Source of the DNA: Candidatus Bathyarchaeota archaeon RBG_16_48_13
GTDB lineage: Archaea; Thermoproteota; Bathyarchaeia; RBG-16-48-13
Length of the DNA stretch: 64,000 nucleotides
Direction of reading: 5' to 3'
NCBI GenBank assembly: GCA_001775995.1
Contig: MEZH01000004.1
Span: 44,456-108,455 of the forward strand
Below, in pieces: positions 23,419 to 37,326 of the stretch. Numbering within the stretch: the stretch's first letter is position 1; each line of letters begins with the position of its first letter. The notes under the pieces were generated by a model, which had not been told where the DNA came from, ran no database searches, and was given only the letters and a program-made list of their open reading frames with translations. Both the position numbers and the translations under genes were made by a program.

Positions 23419-24933
23419 TCATGGCAAGACTGTTCTGATCGTCGGGATCAAAACATCTGTTACTAGGGCAGGGTATATGCCAAGAATTAACGCGACTACC
23501 ATCAGAAGTATCAGGGGCACCATCATGAGAACTGGGGGATCCTTGGCTTCTTCCATGTGATCGGCGAGAGGTCCAAAGAAAATTCTCCTCACGGTCCAGA
23601 GACCGTAACCCGCGGTCAAAACACTGGAGAAAATTGCAGATATGGCCACGATCAGGCGCAGCACAGATCCAGTTGTCATAGCACTAGCCACAACGCCAGA
23701 GAATAGCAGCCACTCTGACTGGAATCCGCTAAGAGGGGGTACACCAGCAATGCCCAAGAAACCTATTAGAGCGGCTAAGGCAGTCAGAGGCATCTTCTTG
23801 GCAAGTCCCCCGAGCTTTCCTATGCTGCGAACTCCATGCGTCCGGTATATTATTATGCCCGCCACTGAGAAGAGAATACACTTGGACAAGCCATGACTCA
23901 CATAGTGAAAGATTGAACCTGAAATTCCAAGTGAGGTAAATGAGGCTAAGCCCAAAAGGAGGTAACCCATCTGACTTATGCTGGAATAAGCCAAGAGACG
24001 TTTTATGTCGTCCTGGGCAAGAGCCATCAGACCTCCGTACACCATTGTTACAAGGGCCCAGATGAATAGGATGTCAGAGAAACTGTTAAACACCCCACCG
24101 AAAGGCGTTATCACGAGCCTCACAATTGCGTAGGCCCCCAGACCTATCATAGCAGGGCTCAACAAGGCACTTATTGGCGTTGGGGCTTCCGCGTGAGCAT
24201 ATGGAAGCCACACGTGGATTCCGAAGACCGCCATCTTGACAAGGAAACCCAGAAGAAGCGCAGCCGACACCCAGGCTGCCAGTTGGGGATTGGCAGAGGC
24301 CAGGATATGCATATCAGCTATCTCGAAGCTTCCCACTACTGGAAAAATCGCCAATATGCCAGCCAGTACAGATAGGGCACCTATATGAGTCCACAGGAAG
24401 TACATAATACCTATCCGCTCTTTTTGGCCGTAGCCGAAGGTGCTAAGAAGGAGCCAAGATGGTATCAACATCAACTCATAGAATAGATAGAACTCTACAA
24501 GATTGGTGGCAAGGACTGTCCCGACCATGCCTACCGTATACAGAAGATACATGGAGAAGTAGATTGAGTATGCAGTATTATCACCACCTTGTTCGTTGAT
24601 CTTGTGCTCAATGTAAGGCATCGAAAAAAGAGTGGTTACAAGACAAAGGAAAACTATCGTCAAGGCCAGGGGTAAACTTATCCCATCAAGAAGGAAACCG
24701 AAATTGAGCCCCGCGATTGGGGCCCAGAGATATTCCTCGGTCACTCGACCTTGGCTCAGTACACTCGGGGCAGAAAAAGCCAGTAACGCAGTCGCATAGG
24801 CAAGAGGGATGAGAGCTACATAACCCACATTCTTGCCCATCCTTCTTCCAAGCAGATACACGAGTGGTACGAAAACAGCCGGGACCAAGAGAACTTGCAG
24901 AAGAGACGAAGGGATGGGATTCAGTGAACTCAT
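23419..24933 (-). CDS. nuoM: NuoM-like antiporter subunit of the complex I-like hydrogenase
   Basis: LDGISLPL, FYLFYELMLIP, VKMAVFGIHVWLPYAHAEAPTPISALL, LLAYSSISQMG. Confidence 0.88.
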   Translation of the reverse strand: MSSLNPIPSSLLQVLLVPAVFVPLVYLLGRRMGKNVGYVALIPLAYATALLAFSAPSVLSQGRVTEEYLWAPIAGLNFGFLLDGISLPLALTIVFLCLVTTLFSMPYIEHKINEQGGDNTAYSIYFSMYLLYTVGMVGTVLATNLVEFYLFYELMLIPSWLLLSTFGYGQKERIGIMYFLWTHIGALSVLAGILAIFPVVGSFEIADMHILASANPQLAAWVSAALLLGFLVKMAVFGIHVWLPYAHAEAPTPISALLSPAMIGLGAYAIVRLVITPFGGVFNSFSDILFIWALVTMVYGGLMALAQDDIKRLLAYSSISQMGYLLLGLASFTSLGISGSIFHYVSHGLSKCILFSVAGIIIYRTHGVRSIGKLGGLAKKMPLTALAALIGFLGIAGVPPLSGFQSEWLLFSGVVASAMTTGSVLRLIVAISAIFSSVLTAGYGLWTVRRIFFGPLADHMEEAKDPPVLMMVPLILLMVVALILGIYPALVTDVLIPTIRTVLP

Positions 24934-24934
24934 C

Positions 24935-26974
24935 TCAGAACCTCCCGAAATTCATTAACATTAGGATTATGAAAAGAAGAGCCAGAACGACTGCAACCAT
25001 GTTGTAGGATAGAACGCCCGTTTGAAGTCTCTTGAACCTGTTGTATAACCCGATCATGAGGCCGGGTAAAATAATGTTGAAGGCGCGGTCGATGACTCTC
25101 GTCTCAAGAGCGTCGTATGTTTTCCGGCCGAAGGCTATCACATTGTTCACGAACAATCTGTAATAGAGACTGTTGATATGCCACCTGTTCCAGAAGAAGC
25201 TGGACAGGTTCTTGAGGAGAGGGTTCTTATCTACTATGCCCTGAGAATCTGCTCTCCGTCTCACATAGAGGAGGTAGGCGGGAATGCCACCTATCATAAG
25301 CATTGCCAGAGAGAGTGATAGGGCCAAGTAGAAGGGAGGGATTATTGGCGAAGCTATGATTGACCCCGAGGATTCAACCGTAACTAATAATTTACTGAAG
25401 ATATCTTTCAGATGGTCTTCTAAGAAGGGCCCACTCAGTCCTATCACTATTGTTCCCAGAGCCAAAGCTCCATACGGAATCCACATGATCTTCGGTGACT
25501 CGTGCACATGATGACCTTCCCTCTCCATCTCTTTCAAATGCAAGCTGGGCTCCCCAAGAAATGTCCTGAAGATCATCCTTAGCGTGTAAAAGAAGGTCAT
25601 AGCCGATGTAGCCAGGGCCACGGCAAGTAGTCCATATTGACCAGCTTCAATAGCTGAGACTAATATGGCATCCTTGCTCCAGAAGCCGCTGAGAGGAGGA
25701 ACGCCAGACAGCGAGAGTGCGGTTATTAGCATGAACCAGAATGTCTTCTGCATTTTTCCTCTTAATCCACCTGTATCCGTCACATATATGGAGTGGGTTG
25801 CATGAATTATTGCGCCCGCAGCCAAGAAGAGTGAGGCTTTGAAAACAGCGTGGCTCAGCAGGTGAAAAATGCTTGACACATATCCTTCCACGCCTTCAGC
25901 CGTCAAACCCGCGATGCCCAGCGCGAGCATCATATAGCCAATTTGGCTTATGGTTGAGTAAGCGAGGATCTTCTTTAGCTCCAGTGCGACTATGGCCTGA
26001 GTGGCTGCCATAATGGCCGTGAAGGCGCCTACCCAAGCTAACACCACGAAGAAGTTCATGAACTCTGTGTAGCCTAACCAGTAGGCTGTATGGAATATGG
26101 GGAATACCCTGGCTATGAGATAGACTCCTGCGTTCACCATGGTGGCAGCGTGAATAAGGGCTGAGACAGAGGTCGGACCCGCCATAGCTTCGGGTAACCA
26201 TTCATGAAATGGAAATTGAGCCGATTTTCCAAAGGGCCCACCAAGGAAGAGTAGGGATACCAGGGTTATTAGACCAGGAGTATTACCTAGGGCGCTTATC
26301 CATTGAGTCGAGCCTTGAAGCTCCGTGAAGCTGAATGTCTTTGAGTACACATATATAATGAAGATGGCTACTAGGAGGGCCGCGTCACCAACACGAGTGA
26401 TTATGAAGGCCTTCATTCCGCAATGCGATGGGGGGTACGCTGGAGTTGGAGCGGGTCCTCCAACCCAGTGCTCACGTTCATCGCTGTACCAGAACCCAAT
26501 AAGTGCATAGCTGCAAAGTCCTACCCCCTCCCAACCTATGAGAAGCTGAATGAAGTTGTCTGACATCACAAGAAGCAGCATGTTCGCTATGAAGAAGTTC
26601 ATGAGGAACCAGTACCTGGTTAGACCTGATTCACCTTTCATGTAGCCTATGGAATACACCATAACCGCGAAACTGATTATGGAGACTACATTGGCCATGA
26701 ATATGCTCAAGGGATCCACCAATAGTCCGAACCTGAGCTCACTCAAACCCAAGGCGGAGAGGGAAGGAAGCCATTTGGCCTCTTCATGGATTGTGATACC
26801 CAACAATAGTTCAGGGATCATAGAAACTGCCATGACAACTGCCGCGAAAGAGAAAGCCAAGGCAACTCCGTCTCTCAGTTTCGATGAGAACTTGGACGCT
26901 ACAATGGAGATCAAGGCTCCTGCCAAAGGCAGAAACCAGACGAGCCACGGTGCGTAGGGAAGCATCAGAGACAC
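24935..26974 (-). CDS. nuoL: NuoL-like antiporter subunit
   Basis: GWEGVGLCSYALIGFW, GKSAQFPFHEWLPEAMAGPTSVSALIHAATMV, HAVFKASLFL, long C-terminal extension. Confidence 0.9.
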   Translation of the reverse strand: MSLMLPYAPWLVWFLPLAGALISIVASKFSSKLRDGVALAFSFAAVVMAVSMIPELLLGITIHEEAKWLPSLSALGLSELRFGLLVDPLSIFMANVVSIISFAVMVYSIGYMKGESGLTRYWFLMNFFIANMLLLVMSDNFIQLLIGWEGVGLCSYALIGFWYSDEREHWVGGPAPTPAYPPSHCGMKAFIITRVGDAALLVAIFIIYVYSKTFSFTELQGSTQWISALGNTPGLITLVSLLFLGGPFGKSAQFPFHEWLPEAMAGPTSVSALIHAATMVNAGVYLIARVFPIFHTAYWLGYTEFMNFFVVLAWVGAFTAIMAATQAIVALELKKILAYSTISQIGYMMLALGIAGLTAEGVEGYVSSIFHLLSHAVFKASLFLAAGAIIHATHSIYVTDTGGLRGKMQKTFWFMLITALSLSGVPPLSGFWSKDAILVSAIEAGQYGLLAVALATSAMTFFYTLRMIFRTFLGEPSLHLKEMEREGHHVHESPKIMWIPYGALALGTIVIGLSGPFLEDHLKDIFSKLLVTVESSGSIIASPIIPPFYLALSLSLAMLMIGGIPAYLLYVRRRADSQGIVDKNPLLKNLSSFFWNRWHINSLYYRLFVNNVIAFGRKTYDALETRVIDRAFNIILPGLMIGLYNRFKRLQTGVLSYNMVAVVLALLFIILMLMNFGRF

Positions 26975-26975
26975 C

Positions 26976-28490
26976 TTACAGAGGTATTATTCTTCTTACA
27001 TACTCTCCAATTTGCAGAAGGGAGCCCGCCGCATTCTGGCTAAATTCGAACAAGGGCCCAGGCCATAAGCCGAAGATCGTGATGAGAGCGGCCATTGCAA
27101 TCAATACCATCAACATTGAGGGGGGGACCTCTTTAATGCGCGAGATATCCTTCTCCGGTTTTGCCAGAAAGATTGTTTGTATCACTCTGAGATAGTATGC
27201 CATAGACAATCCGCTATTCAGGATGCCGGCTATTGCAAGCACGGGCATGCCTCCCTCGAAGGCTGACAAGAACAGAGTGTATTTGCTTATGAAGCCACTA
27301 AAGGATGGAACACCCCCCAAAGCTAGCAAAGATATGGATAGGGAAACAGATGTTACCGGCATTAAGCGACCTACGCCTTTTAGGTTAGTGAGCTCTCTGG
27401 ATCCGAGCTTATAAATCAGGGCGCCTGCGCTTAAGAAGGCAAGTCCCTTCATGAGAGAATGATTGAAGACATGCATGAAGAGACCTGTTAGTCCGTCAAT
27501 ATTCGCCTGTGATGACCCGGGTGTGCCAGCAACGGCGAGCCCGATGAGCATGTATCCGATCTGGGAAATACTGGAGTAGGCCAAAAGACGTTTCAAATCC
27601 TTCTGGAGAAGCGCCATGATGTTACCTGTGGTCATGGTGACTATTGCAAGGACAGCTATCAAAATATCCCAACGGAACTGAAGACTGAACATAATGATGA
27701 AGATTCTACAGAATCCGTATAGCCCGGTTTCGATGAGGACCCCTGACAGGAGAGCGCTTATTGAGCTGGGAGCCTCCGAGTGAGCGTCCGGCAGCCACGT
27801 GTGCAATGGAACTATGGCGGTTTTTATACCAAAACCTACAGTGATCATTGCAAAGACTATCATTAGCCAAGGCGTTGGCGCAGCATTGAGCAGGGATTGA
27901 GAGAGCGACGCCAAGTTGAGTGTCCCTGTAGCTCCGTAAAGAAGAGAGAGAGCGAAGAGTATGGTTCCCGCGCCGAAGGAGCTTATGATCAGATATTTGA
28001 AGCTTGCTTCCATAGCGGTTTTCTGGGTTTTCCGGAATGCCACCAAAACGTATGATGTGATACTCATGAGTTCCCAGAAAATGAACAATGTGAAGAAGTC
28101 ACCTGCCGAGACAACTCCCACCATTCCAGCTATCATTCCGAAGATCAGAACGTAATACTGGGGTAGGCCGGTTTCGTTCTCCATGTATCTTACTGAATAG
28201 ATGACCACGAATAACCCCAACAATAGGTAGATGGAAATCATGAAAATTGAAACCGAATCAACTTCTAATAAGGTGCCAAGGGTGGGAGCGATAGTTTTCA
28301 CGATAATGAAGCCATTGGCTGAGACGAGTGGCAGATCATACACCAAGAAGAAGAGGATTGTCGAAACAAAACCAATGACAGAGTAATATTGAACAAGATT
28401 CTTGACTCTAATCTTGGAGCTTAACCACCCGACGACTGCTGTCGATATCATAAAGAAAAACAGAACGTCAAGGGTCGCGGTAAACATCAT
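26976..28490 (-). CDS. nuoN: NuoN/MrpD-like antiporter subunit
   Basis: FIFWELMS, EASFKYL, IKTAIVPLHTWLPDAHSEAP, KRLLAYSSISQIGY. Confidence 0.85.
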   Translation of the reverse strand: MMFTATLDVLFFFMISTAVVGWLSSKIRVKNLVQYYSVIGFVSTILFFLVYDLPLVSANGFIIVKTIAPTLGTLLEVDSVSIFMISIYLLLGLFVVIYSVRYMENETGLPQYYVLIFGMIAGMVGVVSAGDFFTLFIFWELMSITSYVLVAFRKTQKTAMEASFKYLIISSFGAGTILFALSLLYGATGTLNLASLSQSLLNAAPTPWLMIVFAMITVGFGIKTAIVPLHTWLPDAHSEAPSSISALLSGVLIETGLYGFCRIFIIMFSLQFRWDILIAVLAIVTMTTGNIMALLQKDLKRLLAYSSISQIGYMLIGLAVAGTPGSSQANIDGLTGLFMHVFNHSLMKGLAFLSAGALIYKLGSRELTNLKGVGRLMPVTSVSLSISLLALGGVPSFSGFISKYTLFLSAFEGGMPVLAIAGILNSGLSMAYYLRVIQTIFLAKPEKDISRIKEVPPSMLMVLIAMAALITIFGLWPGPLFEFSQNAAGSLLQIGEYVRRIIPL

Positions 28491-28520
28491 TGGTTTCTCC
28501 GGTGCGGACGTGCCTTCATA

Positions 28521-28826
28521 TTACCATTTTAACTCTTTCAGTTCGCTAACATCGAGTGTCTTGTACCGTCGATATGCATAAATCGCGATAGCCAATCCCA
28601 CTGCGATCACACAGCTGCTAACGCCGATGGAGATTATGACGAAGGATTGAGCTAGGGGATCAGTGAAACCCTGAACTCGATAGGCCGCAAAGGCTATGAA
28701 ATTCAGGTCTGCAGCGTTGACGATGATTTCGATGCCAATGATCAATTTAATCAAATTCTTCTTTGTTACCAGGCAATATAGCCCTATAAAATATAGAGCC
28801 AATGAGCCTGCGAGGAAGAATTCTAT
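28521..28826 (-). CDS. nuoK: NuoK/MnhC-like subunit (start uncertain: ATA 28826 or TTG 28874)
   Basis: Three TMs, IGLYCL..KKNLIKLIIGIEIIVNA; 101 aa from 28826 matches usual NuoK length. Confidence 0.8.
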   Translation of the reverse strand: MEFFLAGSLALYFIGLYCLVTKKNLIKLIIGIEIIVNAADLNFIAFAAYRVQGFTDPLAQSFVIISIGVSSCVIAVGLAIAIYAYRRYKTLDVSELKELKW

Positions 28827-29113
28827 GGAGAGCGTAGATCTTCCTCCCTCTCTCCTCTCACCATAGCCAAGCAACAGGCCGCCGCTCCAAAGAGCACGAG
28901 GGCCAGCAGAATCAGATCAAGAGGCCGGAAACTCCAGAGAAAATTTGCTAGCATTTGACCCAGGTTGGGCACATCTATCCTTAAGAGTTCACTCGGAGCG
29001 CTCGAATATTCAAACAACGGAAACGTGTATCTTGACAACAGGGAGACTATGAAGGCCCCAAAGAGGACTAGAAATGTCAGTCCTAAGGCCAGAACTCGAT
29101 CAACTTTTGGCAT
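28823..29113 (-). CDS. NuoJ C-terminal-half-like membrane subunit
   Basis: LGQMLANFLW.FRPLDLILLALVLFGAA resembles the C-terminal half of NuoJ; between nuoJ-N and nuoK. Confidence 0.65.
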   Translation of the reverse strand: MPKVDRVLALGLTFLVLFGAFIVSLLSRYTFPLFEYSSAPSELLRIDVPNLGQMLANFLWSFRPLDLILLALVLFGAAACCLAMVRGEREEDLRSP

Positions 29114-29354
29114 GAATTCCTCCTCCGAGCATTATTGCCGCAATGAAAAGAACTATCACGGCACCAGCGTAGACCAAGATTTGGAAGAGTGCCGGATAGG
29201 GCGCACTTAGCAACCAAAAGAGGGCCCCGATCGTGATGCTCATTCCGCCAAGAGCTACAACTGAATGAAGAAGGTCAGGAAGTTCCACAACCAATATGGC
29301 CAGAACTATAGAGGCAATTATCAGAATTAGGCTAAGTAATTCTTCCACCCACAT
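29100..29354 (-). CDS. nuoJ: NuoJ N-terminal-half-like subunit
   Basis: DLLHSVVAL, LLSAPYPALFQILVYAGAVIVLF; start re-assigned to ATG 29354. Confidence 0.78.
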   Translation of the reverse strand: MWVEELLSLILIIASIVLAILVVELPDLLHSVVALGGMSITIGALFWLLSAPYPALFQILVYAGAVIVLFIAAIMLGGGIHAKS

Positions 29355-29435
29355 TAATTGAAATCTTCCCATCGAAACTTGATAGCCCACTGTTAAATTA
29401 GGAATATTAATAAACATTTTCACATACTCTTTGAC

Positions 29436-29449
29436 CAAAAAGCTTTAAG
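29436..29449 (+). promoter_or_regulatory. BRE + TATA promoter of the nuoA-hydrogenase operon
   Basis: CAAAAAGC-TTTAAG ending about 42 nt upstream of the ATG at 29492. Confidence 0.55.
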
Positions 29450-29491
29450 CGGCGTCGACATCCAAAGCTTGAATTCAAGGGTTCATGGTCA

Positions 29492-29824
29492 ATGCCCGGC
29501 GTTCTTTCGTCCCCTCCTTTCATAATACTTTTCTCAGTTTTCGTAGGAGTAGCTATTTACTGGATTGGCGGTAGGTTGGGGGCCAAAGGGGAGGCTAGTC
29601 CAGGAAAAGAGGAGGCTTATGCATGTGGGGAAGATATGCCGGCGGTCAAGACCCAAATAAACATACAGTCTTTCTTCATATACGCTTTTTACTTCATGAT
29701 TTTTGACATACTCGCATTTGTCTTAGTGACATCGTTCGGAACTGCTGGTATTTACGCAACCCTTTTCACTGGAATAGTCCTCTTGGCAGTAATTGTGCTT
29801 CCTAAGCTGGGAACTGGGGACTAA
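29492..29824 (+). CDS. nuoA: NuoA-like subunit
   Basis: Three TMs with loop K..AYACGE and FFIYAFYFMIFDI. Confidence 0.8.
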   Translation: MPGVLSSPPFIILFSVFVGVAIYWIGGRLGAKGEASPGKEEAYACGEDMPAVKTQINIQSFFIYAFYFMIFDILAFVLVTSFGTAGIYATLFTGIVLLAVIVLPKLGTGD

Positions 29825-29825
29825 G

Positions 29826-30245
29826 ATGAACGTAGTCAAGTGGGCCAGATCGAAATCGCCATGGATAATCCATTTCAACACTGGATCATGTAACGGTTGC
29901 GACATCGAAGTAGTTGCGGCCTTAACCCCCAAGTTCGATCTCGAGAGATTCGGCGTTCTTTTGAAGGGAAGCCCACGACACGCCGACGTCATTGTAGTTA
30001 CGGGCCCGGTCACTAACCAAGTGAAGGAAAGGCTGAAAAGAGTATACGAACAGATGCCCAGCCCAAAATTCGTAATGGCCATCGGCACCTGCGCATGCTC
30101 AGGCGGAGTCTTCAAAGACTGTTACAACTTATGCCAAGGGGTCGACAAAGTGATCCCGGTGGATATCTATGTTCCGGGCTGCGCGGCCAGCCCCGAAGCT
30201 ATAATAGATGGCGCAGCAAAATTGTTGAAGAAGATCAGCGGCTAA
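29826..30245 (+). CDS. Group 4 [NiFe]-hydrogenase small subunit (NuoB-like)
   Basis: HFNTGSCNGCDIE, SPRHAD, VMAIGTCACSGG, VDIYVPGC; CxxC rather than the tandem CC of NuoB. Confidence 0.9.
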   Translation: MNVVKWARSKSPWIIHFNTGSCNGCDIEVVAALTPKFDLERFGVLLKGSPRHADVIVVTGPVTNQVKERLKRVYEQMPSPKFVMAIGTCACSGGVFKDCYNLCQGVDKVIPVDIYVPGCAASPEAIIDGAAKLLKKISG

Positions 30246-30257
30246 GGAGAAGGAGCA

Positions 30258-30764
30258 ATGGTAGAAACGAAGGAGAGCAAAACGGGACTCTTAGAGAGGT
30301 TAAGAAACTCAATTCCTCAAGAATGGATATTGAGTCTCAAAGCTCCTGAGCCACGCAGGATTTTCCTATCAGTAAAAAGGGAGCATTTCAAAGAAGCTAT
30401 GACCAAGATGCTCAAAGATGAGGAGATAACACACCTTTCGACGATTACAGGTGTGGATCTTGGAGAAGAAATCGAGGTCATTTATCACCTTGATAAGTCT
30501 GGGACCATTCTATCAGTCAAGACGACGACCCCAAAGAGCCAACCCACGTTGCCGACTGTGACGGATTTGATACCAGGAGCGCCACTCTACGAGCGAGAGG
30601 TGCATGAGCTCTTAGGGGTTGCATTCGATGGTCACCCAGATCTCTCCCGTCTGGTTCTCCCAGAAGGCTGGCCTCCTGGACTGTACCCACTAAGGAGGGA
30701 GATCAGCATAGAGAACATACGTTCTGCACTTGAAAAGGCAAAGGAGGAAAAAAAAGTTGGATGA
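30258..30764 (+). CDS. NuoC-like subunit
   Basis: HLSTITGVD, PTVTDLIPGAPLYEREVHELLGVAFDGHP, YPLRR. Confidence 0.88.
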   Translation: MVETKESKTGLLERLRNSIPQEWILSLKAPEPRRIFLSVKREHFKEAMTKMLKDEEITHLSTITGVDLGEEIEVIYHLDKSGTILSVKTTTPKSQPTLPTVTDLIPGAPLYEREVHELLGVAFDGHPDLSRLVLPEGWPPGLYPLRREISIENIRSALEKAKEEKKVG

Positions 30765-31935
30765 AGAAAGAGTCATCATCCCAATAGGCCCTCAACACCC
30801 TGCCTTGAAAGAACCCATGAATTTCATGCTAAAGGTCGAAGGCGAGAAAGTCCTGGAAGCAATTCCCAACCTAGGCTATAACCATAGAGGAATAGAGAAA
30901 GCAGCCACTGTAAGAACGTACATTCAGAACCTCTATCTCGCAGAGAGAATATGCGGAATTTGCTCGATTGCCCACGTGCAATGCTACGCCCAAGGGGTGG
31001 AGAAACTTCTGGAGATGGAGATACCACCTAGAGCTCAATACGTCAGATTGATTCTCTCAGAGTTGAATCGACTCCACAGTCATCTCTTGTGGGTTGGGGT
31101 CGCGGCTCACGAGATTGGTTTTGACACGTTATTCATGTATCTGTGGAGAGACAGAGAGATAGTGATGGACACACTTGAACTCATAACTGGAAACAGAGTC
31201 TCATATGGTTTCACAATGTTGGGTGGAGTTCGAAGAGACATATCGCCCGACATGGCCGCCAGAGTGAAAAAAGAGATGAAAACGGTACGGGATAGAACTC
31301 AATACTATAAGAAGATGAGCTCTAATGAAAGAAGCATCCTGAAGAGAACACAGGGTGTGGGAATCCTAAAGCCCCAAGACGCCCTAGCCCTATGTGCATG
31401 CGGACCCACTCTGAGGGCTAGCAACATCAAATGGGATGTGAGGAGAGAGGACCCATACTTAGCATACAACGAGATACCCTTCAATGTTGTGACTTCTGAT
31501 GGATGCGACGTGCTAAGCAGAATGATCGTCCACTACGATGAGGTGATAGAGGCTACAAACATAATCGAATATGCCCTTGACCACATGCCAAGCGGCTCCT
31601 TCAGGGAAAAAGTCACCAGAAGGATTCCAGCGGGAGAGGTAGTAAGTAGAGTTGAAGCTCCCAGAGGAGAGGACATACATTACATAAAATCCAATGGAAC
31701 TGACAAGCCGGAGAGATTCAAGGTTAGGGCTCCGACTCTCGGAAACATACCCGCCGTCTGCAAAATGCTCTCTGACAGTTACATCGCGGACGTGCCAATA
31801 ATCCTGGCAGGGATAGATCCCTGTTTCAGTTGCACGGATAGGGTCACTTTCGTAAAGGGAGAGATGGGTAAGGGCTGGATCTGGACCCAAGAGGAACTCA
31901 GGAGGTACGCCAACAGGTGGTACCAGCAGAGATAA
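30757..31935 (+). CDS. Group 4 [NiFe]-hydrogenase large (catalytic) subunit, NuoD-like
   Basis: HRGIEK, ERICGICS (L1 motif), EAPRGE, DPCFSCTDR (L2 motif) plus a C-terminal extension; TTG start 30757. Confidence 0.92.
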   Translation: MDEERVIIPIGPQHPALKEPMNFMLKVEGEKVLEAIPNLGYNHRGIEKAATVRTYIQNLYLAERICGICSIAHVQCYAQGVEKLLEMEIPPRAQYVRLILSELNRLHSHLLWVGVAAHEIGFDTLFMYLWRDREIVMDTLELITGNRVSYGFTMLGGVRRDISPDMAARVKKEMKTVRDRTQYYKKMSSNERSILKRTQGVGILKPQDALALCACGPTLRASNIKWDVRREDPYLAYNEIPFNVVTSDGCDVLSRMIVHYDEVIEATNIIEYALDHMPSGSFREKVTRRIPAGEVVSRVEAPRGEDIHYIKSNGTDKPERFKVRAPTLGNIPAVCKMLSDSYIADVPIILAGIDPCFSCTDRVTFVKGEMGKGWIWTQEELRRYANRWYQQR

Positions 31936-32879
31936 TAGAATTCTTAAGCGTTCTAATATATCCGGGATTCATCTTCATCTTTACCCTGGCTTTTTTCTAT
32001 GAGTGGGTAGATAGGAAATTTGTGGCAAGATTGCAGAACAGATACGGTCCCCTTTACGCCGGACCGGGTGGTATTCTGCAGCCATTCGCAGATTTCATCA
32101 AGCTGTTGGCCAAGGAAGACATTACTCCGCGTGCTGCTGACAAGACCACCTTCCGAGTCACGCCCATACTCATGCTTGCCTTGGCTCTTTCGACACTATT
32201 CTTCATCCCTACAGCCTACACAACAGCTGTGTCGTGGTTCGAAGGGGACTTGATCTTCGTTACTTTCTTGGTCAGTATATTGGTATTGATAACCTTGATA
32301 GCAGCCTGGAGTTCTACCAGCACGTTCAGCACAGTGGGGGGTATCAGGGTAGTGCTCCAGATGCTGGGGTTTGAAATTCCTATGACAATAGTCATGGTCG
32401 GTCCGGCAATAGTGTCCAAGACGCTATCCATTACCAATATTGCTCTGTGGCAATACACCACTGGTCATTACTTCGCCATCTACCAGCCCATAGGGCTTAT
32501 AGTACTCATCATTTGCCTTTTGGCTGAAATCAAGAAAGCTCCCTTCGATATTCCCGAAGCTGAAAGTGAGTTAGCTGCCGGATGGATCACGGAGTTCTCA
32601 GGAAGGAAGTTGGCTCTGATAAGACTGACAACAGACGTCGAGCTGATACTGGCCGGGGCCTTGGTGACAGCCCTGTTCCTAGGTGGCCCAACCGGACCTT
32701 TCGGAATACCCTCCGTCATATTCTTCCTGATAAAGACCACGGGGGTCATACTCGTCATCTCAAACCTGAGAGCGCTATTTGCCCGGTTCAGGATTGATCA
32801 GATGCTTGGAGGATTCTGGAAGTATCTGGTACCCCTAGCTCTTCTTCAGATAATATTAGTCACATTAGGGGTTGGTTAG
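31917..32879 (+). CDS. nuoH: NuoH-like membrane subunit
   Basis: DRKFVARLQNRYGP, LQPFADFIKLLAKE, PFDIPEAESEL, ARFRIDQ. Confidence 0.92.
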   Translation: MVPAEIIEFLSVLIYPGFIFIFTLAFFYEWVDRKFVARLQNRYGPLYAGPGGILQPFADFIKLLAKEDITPRAADKTTFRVTPILMLALALSTLFFIPTAYTTAVSWFEGDLIFVTFLVSILVLITLIAAWSSTSTFSTVGGIRVVLQMLGFEIPMTIVMVGPAIVSKTLSITNIALWQYTTGHYFAIYQPIGLIVLIICLLAEIKKAPFDIPEAESELAAGWITEFSGRKLALIRLTTDVELILAGALVTALFLGGPTGPFGIPSVIFFLIKTTGVILVISNLRALFARFRIDQMLGGFWKYLVPLALLQIILVTLGVG

Positions 32880-32881
32880 AG

Positions 32882-33226
32882 ATGGCGATGGAACATGAAT
32901 TGCTCCGAAATCTAAGGAAGAAGGTTGCCACTGAGAAATACCCTTTTATTAAGAAGAAGCCCCCGGAAGGACTGCGCGGTAAACTGATAATAGACATGGC
33001 GAAGTGCATAGGATGCGGTCTCTGCGTCTTTGATTGCCCTGCCGGGGCCATAGAAATGATTGGCAAAGGCACTGCAGCAGATCTAAAGGTATACTTGGAC
33101 AGGTGCCACTTCTGTGGCCAATGTGCCGAGAGTTGCCCCTCAAAATGTATAGTGTACAGCACTGAGTTTGAGTTGGCGAATTTCGATAAGAAAAATCTGA
33201 CTATAGAATTTAAGAGAAAACTGTAG
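32882..33226 (+). CDS. NuoI-like 2x[4Fe-4S] subunit
   Basis: CIGCGLCVFDCP and CHFCGQCAESCP; TEKYPF and GLRGK N-terminal motifs. Confidence 0.9.
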   Translation: MAMEHELLRNLRKKVATEKYPFIKKKPPEGLRGKLIIDMAKCIGCGLCVFDCPAGAIEMIGKGTAADLKVYLDRCHFCGQCAESCPSKCIVYSTEFELANFDKKNLTIEFKRKL

Positions 33227-33254
33227 TATAACTGATTCTGGCAGCACGAGCTAT

Positions 33255-33788
33255 TTGCGATTCTTGTCAGACTCAGGTTTCGGTGGCATGACCGTCATGA
33301 AATGGGAAAAAGATTTGACATCATGGCTCAAAGATTCAAGGAGAGTATTGGTCATGGGAATTGGAAATCCTCTCGGAGGGGACGACAACCTTGGAAACTC
33401 AATGATTGAAGCAATCAAAAGGTTACCGCCAATAAAGGGAGTAACCTTACTAAGGTGTGATACGATACCCGAAAACTTCACTGGAAGGATAAGGAAACTG
33501 AAGCCAGATCACGTGATTATCATAGATGCATCAGAGATAAATGGAAGATGGGGGGAAGCGGCACTCATACCGCCCTCAGAGATCAAGGGGATACCAATAT
33601 CCAATCATTCACTGCCCATAAATCTCCTCTCGGAATATGTCCAAGAAACCATAGGTACGAAAGTTATGATGCTTGCTGTTCAACCCAAAGAGATGTCATA
33701 CAGCGACAGACTTTCTAAAGAGATAGAGAGCTCCATAACGGTTATCTCAAAGAAATTATTTGAAATCCTATCGGCCCGGCGTTCTTGA
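33255..33788 (+). CDS. hycI: Hydrogenase maturation protease (HycI family)
   Basis: VLVMGIGNPLGGDD, PENFTGRI, HVIIIDA, ISNHSLP, LAVQP; directly after the hydrogenase genes. True start may be a later ATG. Confidence 0.85.
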   Translation: MRFLSDSGFGGMTVMKWEKDLTSWLKDSRRVLVMGIGNPLGGDDNLGNSMIEAIKRLPPIKGVTLLRCDTIPENFTGRIRKLKPDHVIIIDASEINGRWGEAALIPPSEIKGIPISNHSLPINLLSEYVQETIGTKVMMLAVQPKEMSYSDRLSKEIESSITVISKKLFEILSARRS

Positions 33789-33821: not shown

Positions 33822-34922
33822 ATGAATGACCTTGGAAAACAAGCCTCTAAACACCTAGGGAGTACTGCTATGAGAATAGAAAATCTCAGGAAAGCATTCT
33901 CATCAGATTTAGATCACTTCATAGTGACAAATCCGAAAAATCTATTCTATTTGACAGGATTTCAGGGGAGTGGCGTCTTGATGATAACGCCGGACAGTGC
34001 AGTGACCCTCTATGTATATTCGATCGAATTTGAGCATGCAAAGAGCAAAGCAAGAGGATGCGAAATAGAACTCTTGGAGAATAAGATGAAGATTGAAGAG
34101 AAGGTTATGAATGATCTGAAGGTTCGGGGAGCCAAACGGGTAGGCATCGATGACCTTCCAATCTCCCAGTATCTGTTATTCAAGAGAAGAAGCAGAGGAA
34201 TGGAAATCCTGCTCAAAGTCGATCTAATATGGAAGCTACGGAAGAGAAAGGATTCTGTAGAACTCAAGAACATGAAAAAAGCTGCTGAAATAGCGACCCA
34301 TGGCTTCGAAGCTGCTCTGGAAGCAATAAGACCGGGAGCAACTGAAAAAGAAGTCGCTGCGGAAATCGAATATAGGATGAGGAGGCACGGATCGGAGGGG
34401 TTGGCTTTCGACTCAATAGTTGCATCAGGCTTCAACTCGATTCTTCCTCATGTTGGACCGACAGAAAGAAAAATCAGGGATGACGATTTCGTTATAGTTG
34501 ACATAGGGTCAATTTACGAAGGCTACTGCACAGACATAACTAGAACATACGTGGCAGGAAACCCATCGGTTCGACAAAGACGGATGTACGATGCCGTTTT
34601 GAGAGCACACGATAGGGCCATCGAATGTATCCAAGAGGGTGTAATGGCGAAGGTGGTTGATCACAGAGCTAGACAGATCCTGTCAAGAAGAGGCTATGGA
34701 GAATTCTTTGTGCATTCCTTAGGTCATGGCGTGGGTTTGGAAGTCCACGAGCCTCCAAGGCTGAGTCCTAATAGCAGTGAGGAACTTCAGAGCGGATATG
34801 TGGTCACAGTCGAGCCCGGGGTATACATTCCAGGCTATGGAGGCGTAAGGATAGAAGATACAGTTGCTGTGGTCAGAGGTGGGTCTGAAAGGTTATCCGA
34901 GGCCCCGTATGGCCTGAGCTAG
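33822..34922 (+). CDS. Xaa-Pro peptidase (M24 family)
   Basis: NLFYLTGF, VDIG..YEGYCTDITRT, HSLGHGVGLEVHE, TVEPGVY, GGVRIED. Confidence 0.92.
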   Translation: MNDLGKQASKHLGSTAMRIENLRKAFSSDLDHFIVTNPKNLFYLTGFQGSGVLMITPDSAVTLYVYSIEFEHAKSKARGCEIELLENKMKIEEKVMNDLKVRGAKRVGIDDLPISQYLLFKRRSRGMEILLKVDLIWKLRKRKDSVELKNMKKAAEIATHGFEAALEAIRPGATEKEVAAEIEYRMRRHGSEGLAFDSIVASGFNSILPHVGPTERKIRDDDFVIVDIGSIYEGYCTDITRTYVAGNPSVRQRRMYDAVLRAHDRAIECIQEGVMAKVVDHRARQILSRRGYGEFFVHSLGHGVGLEVHEPPRLSPNSSEELQSGYVVTVEPGVYIPGYGGVRIEDTVAVVRGGSERLSEAPYGLS

Positions 34923-35710
34923 TGGCCGAACCGTCTCTTCCTTTTTTGATAAATCCTGACAGCTCTCCAGAGGTCTATCTTTCTCAGGTCCGGCCAATAG
35001 ACGTCCAAGAAGTACAGTTCGCTATACGCGCTCTGCCAAAGAAGGAAGCCGCTTAGTCTCTCCTCTCCAGAAGTCCTTATAATGAGATCAGGATCGGATT
35101 TTGGCAAGTGTGATGTGTAAAGATGGTCTTCGATGAGCTTCTCATCAATGTCCTCTGGGCGAAGTCTACCTTCTGTTACCGCCTTAGTGATCCAACGCGT
35201 AGCGTCGACTATCTCGGCTCTACCGCCGTAAGCGATTGCTATGTTCAAAAAATGCTCTGCATAATTTTCAGTCGACTTCTCAGTCTCCGCAATTAGGTCT
35301 TGGAGGACTTGGGGAAGTAGATGTATCCTGCCTATAGCTTTGACACGAACCCTTTTCTGGTGGATCTTTACATCGGCCAGTAATGTTCGTATTTTTTCCT
35401 CGGCCAGCTTCATTATTGTTGTGATCTCCTCTGGAGGGCGCTGGAAATTCTCCATGGAAAAAACGTAGATGGTTATGGTTCTGACGTTAAGGTCAAGGCA
35501 CCAATCCAATAGAGTCTGTACCTTTTCAGCGCCCTTTTTATGGCCTATCCAAACTGGGAGTAGGTTCTCGCGAGCCCATCTCCTATTTCCGTCCAATATG
35601 ACACCTATGTGGCCAGGCATTTGGGAATTTCTTATCTGGCGCCACAGGTATTCTTCATAGGCTTTGTAGACTCCTAGTACTCGTAAGGTTCTCTCTAAAA
35701 TAGGCGGCAT
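34919..35710 (-). CDS. uppS: cis-prenyltransferase (polyprenyl diphosphate synthase)
   Basis: HIGVILDGNRRWA, FSMENFQRP, AYGGRAEI, DPDLIIRTSGEERLSGFLLWQ. Confidence 0.95.
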   Translation of the reverse strand: MPPILERTLRVLGVYKAYEEYLWRQIRNSQMPGHIGVILDGNRRWARENLLPVWIGHKKGAEKVQTLLDWCLDLNVRTITIYVFSMENFQRPPEEITTIMKLAEEKIRTLLADVKIHQKRVRVKAIGRIHLLPQVLQDLIAETEKSTENYAEHFLNIAIAYGGRAEIVDATRWITKAVTEGRLRPEDIDEKLIEDHLYTSHLPKSDPDLIIRTSGEERLSGFLLWQSAYSELYFLDVYWPDLRKIDLWRAVRIYQKRKRRFGH

Positions 35711-35724
35711 CTCCGGTCTTGGGA

Positions 35725-36897
35725 TTATTCTTCCTCGCTGTGCTCATCTTTCCTGAAGTGATTTGAGTATCTCCTGCTCAGAACCCGCACTATGAAAACC
35801 GAGGAAGCGGTTACCAAGATGCCAAATCCTACAGAAGCAACCAGAGTCATTGGCGACACAGATGGGTCAAGAAGGATGAGGGAAGATCTAAGAGCCACCT
35901 CTCTTGAAGGCAGTACCATGACAGCGCCAATCACGTTTCGCCAAAGCTTTGAACTCTCGATGAAAAGGTAATAGATGGACCTACCAATAAAGAACACTCC
36001 GACGCCTATGGTTATCAGGTCCAGTGAGTAGGCTATGAATTTGCCAATTATGAGTGGCAAATTTGCAAGTATTATGCCCAGATCAAAGGGAATTTGAACC
36101 TCAACCATTATTTTGGATATCGCCTGATAAGTGCCGATGAGAACTAGGACGAACCCTGCAGAGCTTGTGAAGAATCTAATCTGAGCCAAAGGAGTTGGTA
36201 TAAGGCTCGTTCGGACATAATGATTCACTCGCTTGATCCGCTGGTCCAATGCAAAGCCCTTGACAAGCAGTATGACGCCTAGAATTATCAATAGAGCTTG
36301 CCCTGTATAGATTAGTTGTTGGTAATACCAAAGGAAAAAGAAGGCTATCAGCAGTATTCCAGGTATTCCCAGGAACACCCGTGAGTACCTAGCATCCTCC
36401 GTAATCATTCTGACATATTTGAAGAAGACGGCCCAAGATTCTTCTATGGACTCACTGTGCTTCACAACTGTCCGTTTTATGGACATTATTGGAACGCGTG
36501 ATTCAACAATTGGGATGACTGATTCATCTCCGTAGCCATCGGAAACCAGAATAGCGTTGTTGGCTGGAAATCTTTCGAGAATCGATTCGAGTTCTGAGGC
36601 CAACTTCCGGTCAGCCTCTACTCCCCCAGAGTGAGAACCCGAAATAGAGGCCACTTCAATCTTCTCTTTAGGTTCAGTCAGGGTCTTCTTCATATCATCG
36701 AAAATTTTCACCGCATCGAATATGGCGTTGGCATCTGCTTCTTCCGGATCGTTCAGAGCCAATTCTATTGCAGCCTTAATGTTTTCATCTCGCCCTATGA
36801 CAGGAGTATTCACGCGCCCCTTTGCCTCGATATCCCCATCTCGGTCAACGCATAGCACCAGGATTCTGTCGGACTCGCCTTTGATCTTACTTGCCAT
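35725..36897 (-). CDS. DUF373 family membrane protein
   Basis: LVLCVDRDGDI, DPEEADANAIF, VSDGYGDE, VVKHSESIEESW; start re-assigned to ATG 36897. Confidence 0.85.
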   Translation of the reverse strand: MASKIKGESDRILVLCVDRDGDIEAKGRVNTPVIGRDENIKAAIELALNDPEEADANAIFDAVKIFDDMKKTLTEPKEKIEVASISGSHSGGVEADRKLASELESILERFPANNAILVSDGYGDESVIPIVESRVPIMSIKRTVVKHSESIEESWAVFFKYVRMITEDARYSRVFLGIPGILLIAFFFLWYYQQLIYTGQALLIILGVILLVKGFALDQRIKRVNHYVRTSLIPTPLAQIRFFTSSAGFVLVLIGTYQAISKIMVEVQIPFDLGIILANLPLIIGKFIAYSLDLITIGVGVFFIGRSIYYLFIESSKLWRNVIGAVMVLPSREVALRSSLILLDPSVSPMTLVASVGFGILVTASSVFIVRVLSRRYSNHFRKDEHSEEE

Positions 36898-36987
36898 GAG
36901 GAATCGAGCGCCTTTGGTCAATCTTGAAACAACGATTCTTGATTTCTGGGTACTGGTCAATGAAGAAAGCGTAATAGACGCTCTCTG

Positions 36988-37326
36988 TCAAATAGTGAGC
37001 CTCTTCACTGTAACGGTTCCATCCTCGGTTACCCTTATCTCGAATTCATCACCATAACTGTATTTCTTGGTGAGCCGCTCCCATTCCTGAATTGTCAAGT
37101 AAAGGACGAAACGGTTTGTGTATGCTCTTGCCTGAGGAAACATCCTCGGAAGCTGTTTGAGAATAGGCATAACAGCCATTACTTCTGGAGACGAGTTAGA
37201 GGGCATGGCGACGACACTAGTTTGTTGGGATTCTATGGCAAACTCTATGCTTATCAGCTCTCCACCCATGCCATCGAATGTTGGATGTACCGCAGTAACC
37301 TTGCAACTGATCGTCGTTTCGACCAT
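36988..37326 (-). CDS. Arcadin-1-like small protein
   Basis: 112 aa with N-terminal beta strands and the C-terminal pattern FVLYLTIQEWERL..KYSYGDEFEIRV..DG.V.VKR, resembling arcadin 1 from memory of the family; not searched. Confidence 0.55.
   Translation of the reverse strand: MVETTISCKVTAVHPTFDGMGGELISIEFAIESQQTSVVAMPSNSSPEVMAVMPILKQLPRMFPQARAYTNRFVLYLTIQEWERLTKKYSYGDEFEIRVTEDGTVTVKRLTI

Follow-up and report, generated by a model that had tools for sequence, protein, structure and literature searches.

We analyzed a 64,000-nucleotide stretch of DNA (hereafter, the window) from Candidatus Bathyarchaeota archaeon RBG_16_48_13, in which a cluster of 13 tightly packed open reading frames (ORFs) at positions 23419-33788 encodes homologs of all 11 core Nuo/Fpo subunit families (A, B, C, D, H, I, J, K, L, M, and N), with J in two ORFs, together with a HycI-type protease. 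The window corresponds to positions 44456-108455 of contig C4 in a metagenome-assembled genome (MAG) of 0.85 Mb, which comprises 16 contigs and is 75% complete. The assignments of the 11 subunits and the protease are correct and lie far beyond chance. Judging from the sequence, the product of the cluster is probably (we would put the chance at about 80%) a single membrane complex, namely a group 4 [NiFe]-hydrogenase of the energy-converting kind that is Hfo-like (Fpo/Nuo-like, HydDB group 4g). By analogy with related enzymes, this complex would most likely act as a reversible ferredoxin:H+ oxidoreductase coupled to ion translocation. What the sequence shows directly is the set of genes, their motifs and conserved residues, the synteny with related loci, and how the cluster differs from a paralogous complex in the same genome.

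Based on an ORF check of the window, the cluster consists of two head-to-head transcription units. The minus-strand operon (23419-29438) is transcribed in the order J1, J2, K, N, L, M, and the plus-strand operon (29492-33788) in the order A, B, C, D, H, I, HycI-type protease. An earlier note, made from the letters of the window, had described two divergent operons with 11 complex I subunit families; all 13 ORFs are present, with corresponding family matches for all but J2, and the profile matches bear out the division that it gave, with J (split), K, N, L, and M on the minus strand and A, B, C, D, H, and I on the plus strand. The same note placed a HycI-type protease after D; the protease is indeed encoded in the operon, but its gene follows I, not D. 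The note's broader claim, that this is a ferredoxin-linked, ion-translocating [NiFe]-hydrogenase, agrees with every sequence test that we ran.

Catalytic subunits and protease

The large subunit D carries an L1 motif (ERICGICSIAH, with Cys75 and Cys78) and an L2 motif (DPCFSCTDR, with Cys365 and Cys368), such that all four Ni-ligating cysteines are intact, and it retains the glutamate of the HPxxxEP motif. After DPCFSCTDR, the protein continues with a 30-aa, HycE-like C-terminal tail (residues 372-401), and the precursor is predicted to be cleaved after Arg371. Both motifs and the tail had been pointed out in the earlier note, and they are as described there.

When D was compared with proteins of solved structure, the best matches were HycE (7z0s_E; 2.4e-86, 293 bits) and MbhL (6cfw_L; 5.6e-82, 279 bits). 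Both align over the full length of D, and the HycE alignment enters the tail, reaching HycE residue 572. With complex I proteins, a good alignment was obtained for residues 1-296 of D only; among them, Nqo4 scored 239 bits (mostly over residues 7-296). MbsL, at 194 bits, scored lower than HycE, MbhL, and Nqo4. Against the FpoD and NuoD models of NCBIfam, D scored 333-343 bits, below both cut-offs. Based on these scores, D is closer to group 4 catalytic subunits than to NuoD, FpoD, or MbsL. In a residue-by-residue alignment, Glu28 of D corresponds to Glu21 of MbhL, which was reportedly proposed by Yu et al. in 2018 as a proton relay. At the positions of His38 and Tyr87 of Thermus Nqo4, which are quinone head-group ligands, D has Lys27 and Gly76.

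The first motif of the small subunit B is a CxxC (GSCNGCDIE), the same as in E. coli HycG and HyfI, whereas E. coli NuoB has a tandem CC. B also carries GTCACSGG and PGC, which align with HycG and HyfI. The protease keeps the metal ligands of E. coli HycI (Asp16, Asp62, and His90). The cluster therefore bears the marks by which a group 4 [NiFe]-hydrogenase is recognized, namely the L1 and L2 motifs, a CxxC small subunit, and a NuoH-like subunit with three Proton_antipo_M subunits; its D and B are of hydrogenase type and not of the type found in respiratory complex I or Fpo.

Membrane arm

We aligned the membrane-arm subunits of the window with NuoL, NuoM, NuoN, NuoK, NuoA, and NuoJ of E. coli. 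The glutamate in transmembrane helix (TM) 5 and the lysine in TM7 are conserved in L, M, and N, as is the TM12 residue specific to each subunit (Lys-Asp in L, Glu in M, and Lys in N). L keeps equivalents of Glu144, Lys229, Lys399-Asp400, and His334/His338, and equivalents of NuoK Glu36, NuoA Asp79, and NuoJ Tyr59 (within VYAGA, in J1) are also conserved. At the C-terminus of L, ~78 aa of amphipathic sequence separate a TM at residues ~539-571 from a terminal TM at residues 650-679, which is the lateral-helix arrangement of NuoL.

The second J fragment, J2, had no match in Pfam or NCBIfam, and its pairwise BLASTP alignment with the unsplit J of the paralogous complex was not significant (E 0.22). 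In relatives, J2 always lies between J1 and K, and two Bathyarchaeia loci encode J1 and J2 fused in a single ORF of 168-171 aa (L004, 12623-13129; L020, 2366-2881). Because of this constant position and these fused ORFs, we regard J as genuinely split here. Separate J1 and J2 ORFs occur in the window as well as in Methanomethylicia and loci L001 and L003.

All ORFs of the cluster are accounted for, and none of them encodes an MbhA-C/F-like subunit. An Mrp module of the Mbh/Mbs type is absent from the cluster, which instead has three NuoL/M/N-type subunits and a NuoA.

Paralogous complex in the same genome

A second, “headless” Nuo-like cluster of 11 subunits is present on contig C13 of the same genome (L043:2655-12749, minus strand), where it is co-linear and J is unsplit. 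Its D protein has ERTSLPDTANH and DYFPPEADR at the two motif positions, lacks any Ni ligand and the tail, and carries the complex-I-type N-terminal motif HPGSGH; its B protein has the tandem CC. The cluster is flanked by genes for an ETF-QO-like flavoprotein with a ubiquinone-binding domain, a DUF981 protein, a polyprenyl synthase, and a UbiA prenyltransferase. Because the genome keeps both versions of the complex, the hydrogenase features of the window copy are neither an annotation accident nor a product of slow decay.

The earlier note had found no NuoEFG or FpoF input module in the window, and this extends to the genome as assembled: we identified no homolog of NuoE, NuoF, or NuoG (TBLASTN) and none of FrhB/FpoF (FrhB_FdhB_C) anywhere in the assembly.

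Synteny and phylogeny of related loci

Homologs of D number in the thousands. The closest, on a metagenome contig from JGI, is 76% identical, and the next are 60-66% identical and labelled Bathyarchaeota, Thermoproteota, or Hodarchaeota (one Hodarchaeota-labelled D reaches 66%). Within the class, 162 of the 201 sampled genomes have a D homolog at E ≤ 1e-40, many with 50-65% identity, although this count includes Nuo-type paralogues. The enzyme family is common in Bathyarchaeia and related archaea.

From collections with one genome per species, we recovered 39 loci and read their layouts using TBLASTN with all 13 window proteins. Six of them have the exact divergent layout, with M L N K J2 J1 facing A B C D H I, and these form one group in the D tree; four are labelled Methanomethylicia/Methanomethylicota (L008, L011, L027, and L034), one Thermoproteota only (L007), and one Nitrososphaerota (L010). 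The head-to-head junction is also present in a Bathyarchaeota locus (L003) and in L001, although both contigs stop within N, and it is conserved in at least eight related loci overall. The closest relative has an identical layout with the HycI gene in the equivalent place, and it shares flanking genes with the window (M24 peptidase, UppS, DUF373, arcadin-1, and NifU). L052 contains a rearranged version of the divergent layout. The synteny survey suggested in the earlier note thus showed the divergent operon pairing to recur in MAGs of Methanomethylicia and Bathyarchaeia. Other Bathyarchaeia loci are co-linear, with ABCDHIJK then N (L004, L009, and L020) or ABCDHIJK-N-L-M (L005), and co-linearity is also seen in a large clade, with the operon order ABCDHI(J)K-L-M-N (L018-L026 and L038). 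L029, which is labelled Bathy-6, belongs to the D clade of this co-linear operon, but its own cluster is rearranged.

The four Ni-ligand cysteines and both L1 and L2 motifs are conserved in all D homologs that we examined, and the C-termini fall into two types. In the tail-bearing type, which includes the window D, mostly 25-37 residues with the pattern W-[IV]-W...EL[RK]RY follow the L2 motif; most Methanomethylicia proteins have only 8-10 residues after the motif, and that of L034 has 29. In the other, Bathy-6-type proteins (L018-L026, L029, L033, and L038), D ends exactly at DPCFSCTDR, and the locus has no HycI gene. Across the family, tail length and the presence of the protease appear to co-vary. 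Two relatives in the class (G123 and G008) were flagged with one TGA inside D and were considered as selenocysteine variants; this was rejected, as on translation the TGA is the natural stop codon of a slightly shorter tail.

In maximum-likelihood trees, the window D and its 76% identical relative form a pair (100/100). This pair lies in a moderately supported clade (93/87) with tail-bearing sequences of Bathyarchaeia, Methanomethylicia, and Hodarchaeota, separate from the Bathy-6-type clade (100/100) that holds L029. The clusters of L033 (labelled Methanocella sp.) and L001 (labelled Krumholzibacteriaceae bacterium) nest tightly among Bathyarchaeia in the D tree, which suggests that these contigs were mis-binned or recently transferred.

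Comparison with known systems

An 11-subunit Fpo-like hydrogenase from Bathyarchaeia subgroup 6 was named Hfo by Loh, Hervé & Brune (2021), who placed it in HydDB group 4g, subclade 4g-6, and reported that Ca. Methanomethylicus mesodigestum and Pyrodictium delaneyi have nearly identical clusters (PMC7886697). They argued that Hfo closes the gap between hydrogenases and complex I, and they stated that no 4g enzyme had been characterized (PMC7886697). The Hfo reading was later applied to the cultivated Bathyarchaeum tardum (Khomyakova et al. 2023; PMC10477458). Complex-I-like group 4 hydrogenases of Heimdallarchaeia have been modelled, with proposed subgroups 4j-4q (Appler et al. 2024; bioRxiv 10.1101/2024.07.04.601786), and a 2026 survey found 4g to be polyphyletic (PMC13582414).

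The window cluster resembles Hfo in its 11 families and its intact L1 and L2 motifs, and it likewise lacks FpoFO, NuoEFG, and an Mrp Na+ module; the functional proposal is the same. The novelty implied by the earlier note therefore does not stand: an A-through-N layout with intact L1 and L2 had already been published as Hfo, and because both architecture and inference coincide with that work, we consider the novelty of the locus low. There are nonetheless differences from the Bathy-6 type. The window D falls in the tail-bearing clade, outside the clade with the Bathy-6-labelled L029; it has the 30-aa tail and an in-operon HycI, whereas Bathy-6-type D ends at DPCFSCTDR and has no protease in the locus; and the window genes form two divergent operons with the order J-K-N-L-M and a split J, whereas the Bathy-6 type is co-linear. 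The locus is probably a further, somewhat divergent Hfo-like member of group 4g (≤76% identity), in a tail-plus-protease, divergent-operon variant that is also found in Methanomethylicia. With the hydrogenases of Heimdallarchaeia (Asgard), it shares a hydrogenase-type D in a Nuo-like architecture and the lack of NuoEFG.

Ni ligands and the proton-relay glutamate are shared with Mbh of Pyrococcus furiosus (group 4d, 6CFW) and with Hyc/Hyf of E. coli (group 4a, 7Z0S), and HycE additionally shares the tail and HycI-type processing with the window D. The membrane arms differ, however. Mbh has one antiporter-like subunit and an Mrp-type Na+ module, without a separate NuoA/L/M/N set; Hyc has one antiporter-like subunit where the window has three; and Hyf, which has three, lacks NuoA and NuoJ and has a link to formate dehydrogenase. 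The same 11 subunits without an NADH or F420 module, and probably with ferredoxin as the donor, are also found in headless complex I and the Fpo-like complexes, such as those of Methanothrix and Methanomassiliicoccales and the C13 paralogue. In these complexes, however, D lacks Ni ligands and tail, B has the tandem CC, and it is quinone or methanophenazine that is reduced, not protons.

Proposed function and alternative explanations

The ferredoxin partner, the direction of the reaction, the ion, the stoichiometry, and the co-assembly of the products of the two operons are what we infer beyond the sequence comparisons. In the mechanism that we propose, 2-oxoacid:ferredoxin oxidoreductases would reduce ferredoxin, which would pass electrons to the two [4Fe-4S] clusters of I; this subunit is the presumed entry point by analogy with Mbh, Ech, and photosynthetic complex I. 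From I, the electrons would reach the Ni-Fe site of D through B, which has a single [4Fe-4S] cluster, and would there reduce protons to H2. H, A, J, and K would pass the released energy on to N, M, and L, tied together by the lateral helix of L, and H+ (or Na+) would be moved across the membrane. The reverse reaction, in which the ion gradient drives ferredoxin reduction by H2, would also be expected. Before any of this, the D precursor would receive its metal from Hyp proteins, and the HycI-type protease, whose gene closes the operon, would then cut off the 30-residue tail after Arg371.

The genome context favours H2 evolution as the main direction, because the genome encodes at least three POR_N-type 2-oxoacid:ferredoxin oxidoreductases as well as an acetyl-CoA synthetase of the ADP-forming type, and because CdhC (acetyl-CoA synthase) and McrA were not found; with the genome 75% complete, both of these negatives are limited by incompleteness.

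Several points weigh against the assignment as an ion-pumping hydrogenase. In the membrane arm, the equivalent of NuoK Glu72 is a valine, the equivalent of NuoA Glu81 is not conserved, and the TM8 lysine is replaced by glycine in M and by glutamate in N; the M-like subunit of the C13 paralogue likewise has glycine at the TM8 position. Neither TBLASTN with E. coli queries nor the Pfam models HypC, HypD, and HypF_C revealed a HypC, HypD, or HypF in the assembly, which is 75% complete. The group has been described from genomes only. Energetically, the ferredoxin/H+ couple would provide ~20-40 kJ per 2 e-. At complex-I stoichiometry, this would not suffice for four channels working against a normal gradient, and therefore the gearing, the ion, or the physiological direction would have to differ from complex I. 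The complex may have a lower gearing, part of the arm may exchange Na+ for H+ as in Mbh, or the enzyme may frequently run in reverse. Finally, forcing the window D to group with Nuo-type D costs 16.4 log-likelihood units, with p = 0.05 in the approximately unbiased (AU) test, in a tree where Nuo-type D is represented by two sequences on long branches and deep placement is weakly resolved. In the large-subunit phylogeny that the earlier note had called for, a grouping with Nuo-type D is thus rejected only marginally. The tree being only weakly decisive, it is the motifs that carry the argument for a hydrogenase.

We weighed four other explanations for the cluster. The same enzyme might work mainly in reverse as an H2:ferredoxin oxidoreductase, consuming the gradient to push electrons from H2 uphill onto ferredoxin. 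This role, which Loh et al. proposed for the Hfo of acetogenic Bathyarchaeia (PMC7886697), is possible but clearly less likely than not to be the main one: four putative ion paths would give a high ion/2e- ratio favouring the uphill direction, RACo (a corrinoid-protein activator) is encoded near HypE, and an H2-consuming MvhADG-HdrABC cluster in the genome means that H2 metabolism is not purely evolving, yet with CdhC and McrA missing from the genome as assembled there is no obvious sink that needs extra reduced ferredoxin. It is far less probable that the genes specify two machines, with A, B, C, D, H, and I forming a small Ech-like hydrogenase and J, K, N, L, and M an Mrp-like cation/proton antiporter independent of it. 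The genes do occupy two transcription units, and matches to Mrp A/D models were obtained for L, M, and N as well. However, no group 4 hydrogenase is known that lacks an antiporter-like subunit, and the plus-strand operon does not encode one. Moreover, J and K are of complex I type and not of the MrpC/E/F/G type, other Mrp subunits are not present, the head-to-head pairing is conserved across classes, and elsewhere (L004, L005, and L009) a single co-linear operon runs from ABCDHIJK into the antiporter genes.

Because gene content and order are those of a headless complex I, the cluster could also be read as a respiratory Fpo/Nuo-like oxidoreductase that passes electrons from ferredoxin to quinone or another acceptor and has merely retained ancestral cysteines, like Ehr or Mbs-type derivatives. 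The bit scores of D against the FpoD and NuoD models and the marginal AU result lean in that direction; however, D remains under the cut-offs of both models, selection has preserved, in many different lineages, the four Ni ligands along with Glu28, the HycE-like tail, and a dedicated protease, B has CxxC and not CC, the quinone-binding His and Tyr positions are Lys and Gly, and a separate complex in a quinone context is available for that job in this genome. We consider this reading very improbable. We give similarly little credence to an intact but inactive cluster that cannot be matured for want of Hyp machinery. Apart from the missing HypC, HypD, and HypF, no HypA or HypB was identified by TBLASTN with E. 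coli queries in the 75%-complete assembly; against this, all ORFs of the cluster are open with conserved residues kept, a HypE homolog is present (C4:20859-21893; L055:6857-7903), and the genome encodes three [NiFe] large subunits. The hypE gene, whose product is 37% identical to E. coli HypE, lies ~23 kb upstream of the window and is solitary, without adjacent hyp genes. Given the three large subunits and the 75% completeness, the HypC, HypD, and HypF genes probably lie in the unassembled part of the genome.

As a refinement of the hydrogenase assignment, the tail-bearing, protease-dependent clade, whose complex-I membrane arm is complete with four putative channels, could be a functionally distinct subgroup with an ion/electron gearing unlike that of Mbh and complex I, for example with an arm that is partly a Na+/H+ exchanger, or as an obligate gradient-driven H2:ferredoxin reductase. 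We regard this as unlikely. Were it true, the coexisting quinone-type paralogue would make a natural pair for the change in coupling from Ni-Fe to quinone.

Significance of the locus

Among living systems, complex-I-shaped hydrogenases come closest to modelling the step from a proton-reducing enzyme to a respiratory NADH:quinone pump, and we know of none that has been purified or structurally solved. The window locus leaves the proposals in the existing literature unchanged. It is a clean and complete example, in which all 11 subunits are accompanied by a tail for processing, a protease encoded in cis, and, as a built-in control, a paralogue without Ni. It would be reasonable to choose it for heterologous expression or structure prediction.

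Other hydrogenases in the genome

On contig C7 (L053:7219-13581, minus strand), the genes HdrC-HdrB-HdrA-MvhD-MvhG-MvhA encode a group 3c-type [NiFe]-hydrogenase with heterodisulfide reductase. A third [NiFe]-hydrogenase, with a small subunit of 296 aa and a large subunit of 434 aa, is encoded on contig C6 (L054:4221-8227, plus strand) and is probably a cytosolic group 3 enzyme; a gene for a Fer4_22 protein lies ~0.7 kb upstream on the same strand. Because the HdrCBA-MvhDGA cluster and this other group-3-like hydrogenase are present, H2 recycling is possible.

Gene assignments and neighboring genes

Coordinates and profile matches of the cluster are listed in Table 1. In addition to its match in the table, L scored 503 bits against NDH_I_L (TIGR01974), over the cut-off and covering model positions 5-629 of 630, and N scored 276 bits against TIGR01770 NDH_I_N, under the cut-off of 332.6. 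The ORF of J1 probably begins at the ATG at 29354, which gives 84 aa, because the ortholog in the closest relative is 84 aa long; with this start, the divergent intergenic region is 137 bp (29355-29491). This region is a presumed bidirectional promoter. The start of B is probably the ATG at 29826.

Table 1. Features of the probable hydrogenase gene cluster, in window coordinates
Feature	Position	Strand	Evidence
NuoM-like antiporter subunit, 504 aa	23419..24933	-	Proton_antipo_M 1e-66; TIGR01972 NDH_I_M 310 bits, cut-off 263.8 exceeded
NuoL-like antiporter subunit with C-terminal lateral-helix region, 679 aa	24935..26974	-	Proton_antipo_M 1.4e-66; TIGR01974 NDH_I_L
NuoN-like antiporter subunit, 504 aa	26976..28490	-	Proton_antipo_M 1.6e-71
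NuoK-like subunit, 117 aa	28521..28874	-	Oxidored_q2 1.2e-24
J2, NuoJ C-terminal half, 96 aa, two predicted TM helices	28823..29113	-	Fused orthologs
J1, NuoJ N-terminal half (TM1-3)	29100..29438	-	Oxidored_q3 1.3e-12, model positions 2-59/146
Divergent intergenic region, presumed bidirectional promoter	29439..29491		Sequence read
NuoA-like subunit, 110 aa	29492..29824	+	Oxidored_q4 3.3e-6, 27.7 bits, gathering cut-off 23.3 exceeded
Hydrogenase small subunit, NuoB-like	29793..30245	+	Oxidored_q6 2.7e-33
NuoC-like subunit, 168 aa	30258..30764	+	Complex1_30kDa 1.6e-30
[NiFe]-hydrogenase large subunit, NuoD-like	30730..31935	+	Complex1_49kDa 3.2e-68; NiFeSe_Hases 3.2e-12
NuoH-like membrane subunit, 320 aa	31917..32879	+	NADHdh 1.7e-88
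NuoI-like 2x[4Fe-4S] subunit, 114 aa	32882..33226	+	Fer4 2.5e-14, two stretches
HycI-type maturation endopeptidase	33255..33788	+	HycI 5e-9; TBLASTN with E. coli HycI 5.9e-13

Downstream of the cluster, window positions 33822-37326 contain genes for an M24 peptidase, an undecaprenyl-diphosphate synthase, and a DUF373 membrane protein, as well as a small ORF whose counterpart on the contig of the closest relative carries the Pfam domain Arcadin_1.

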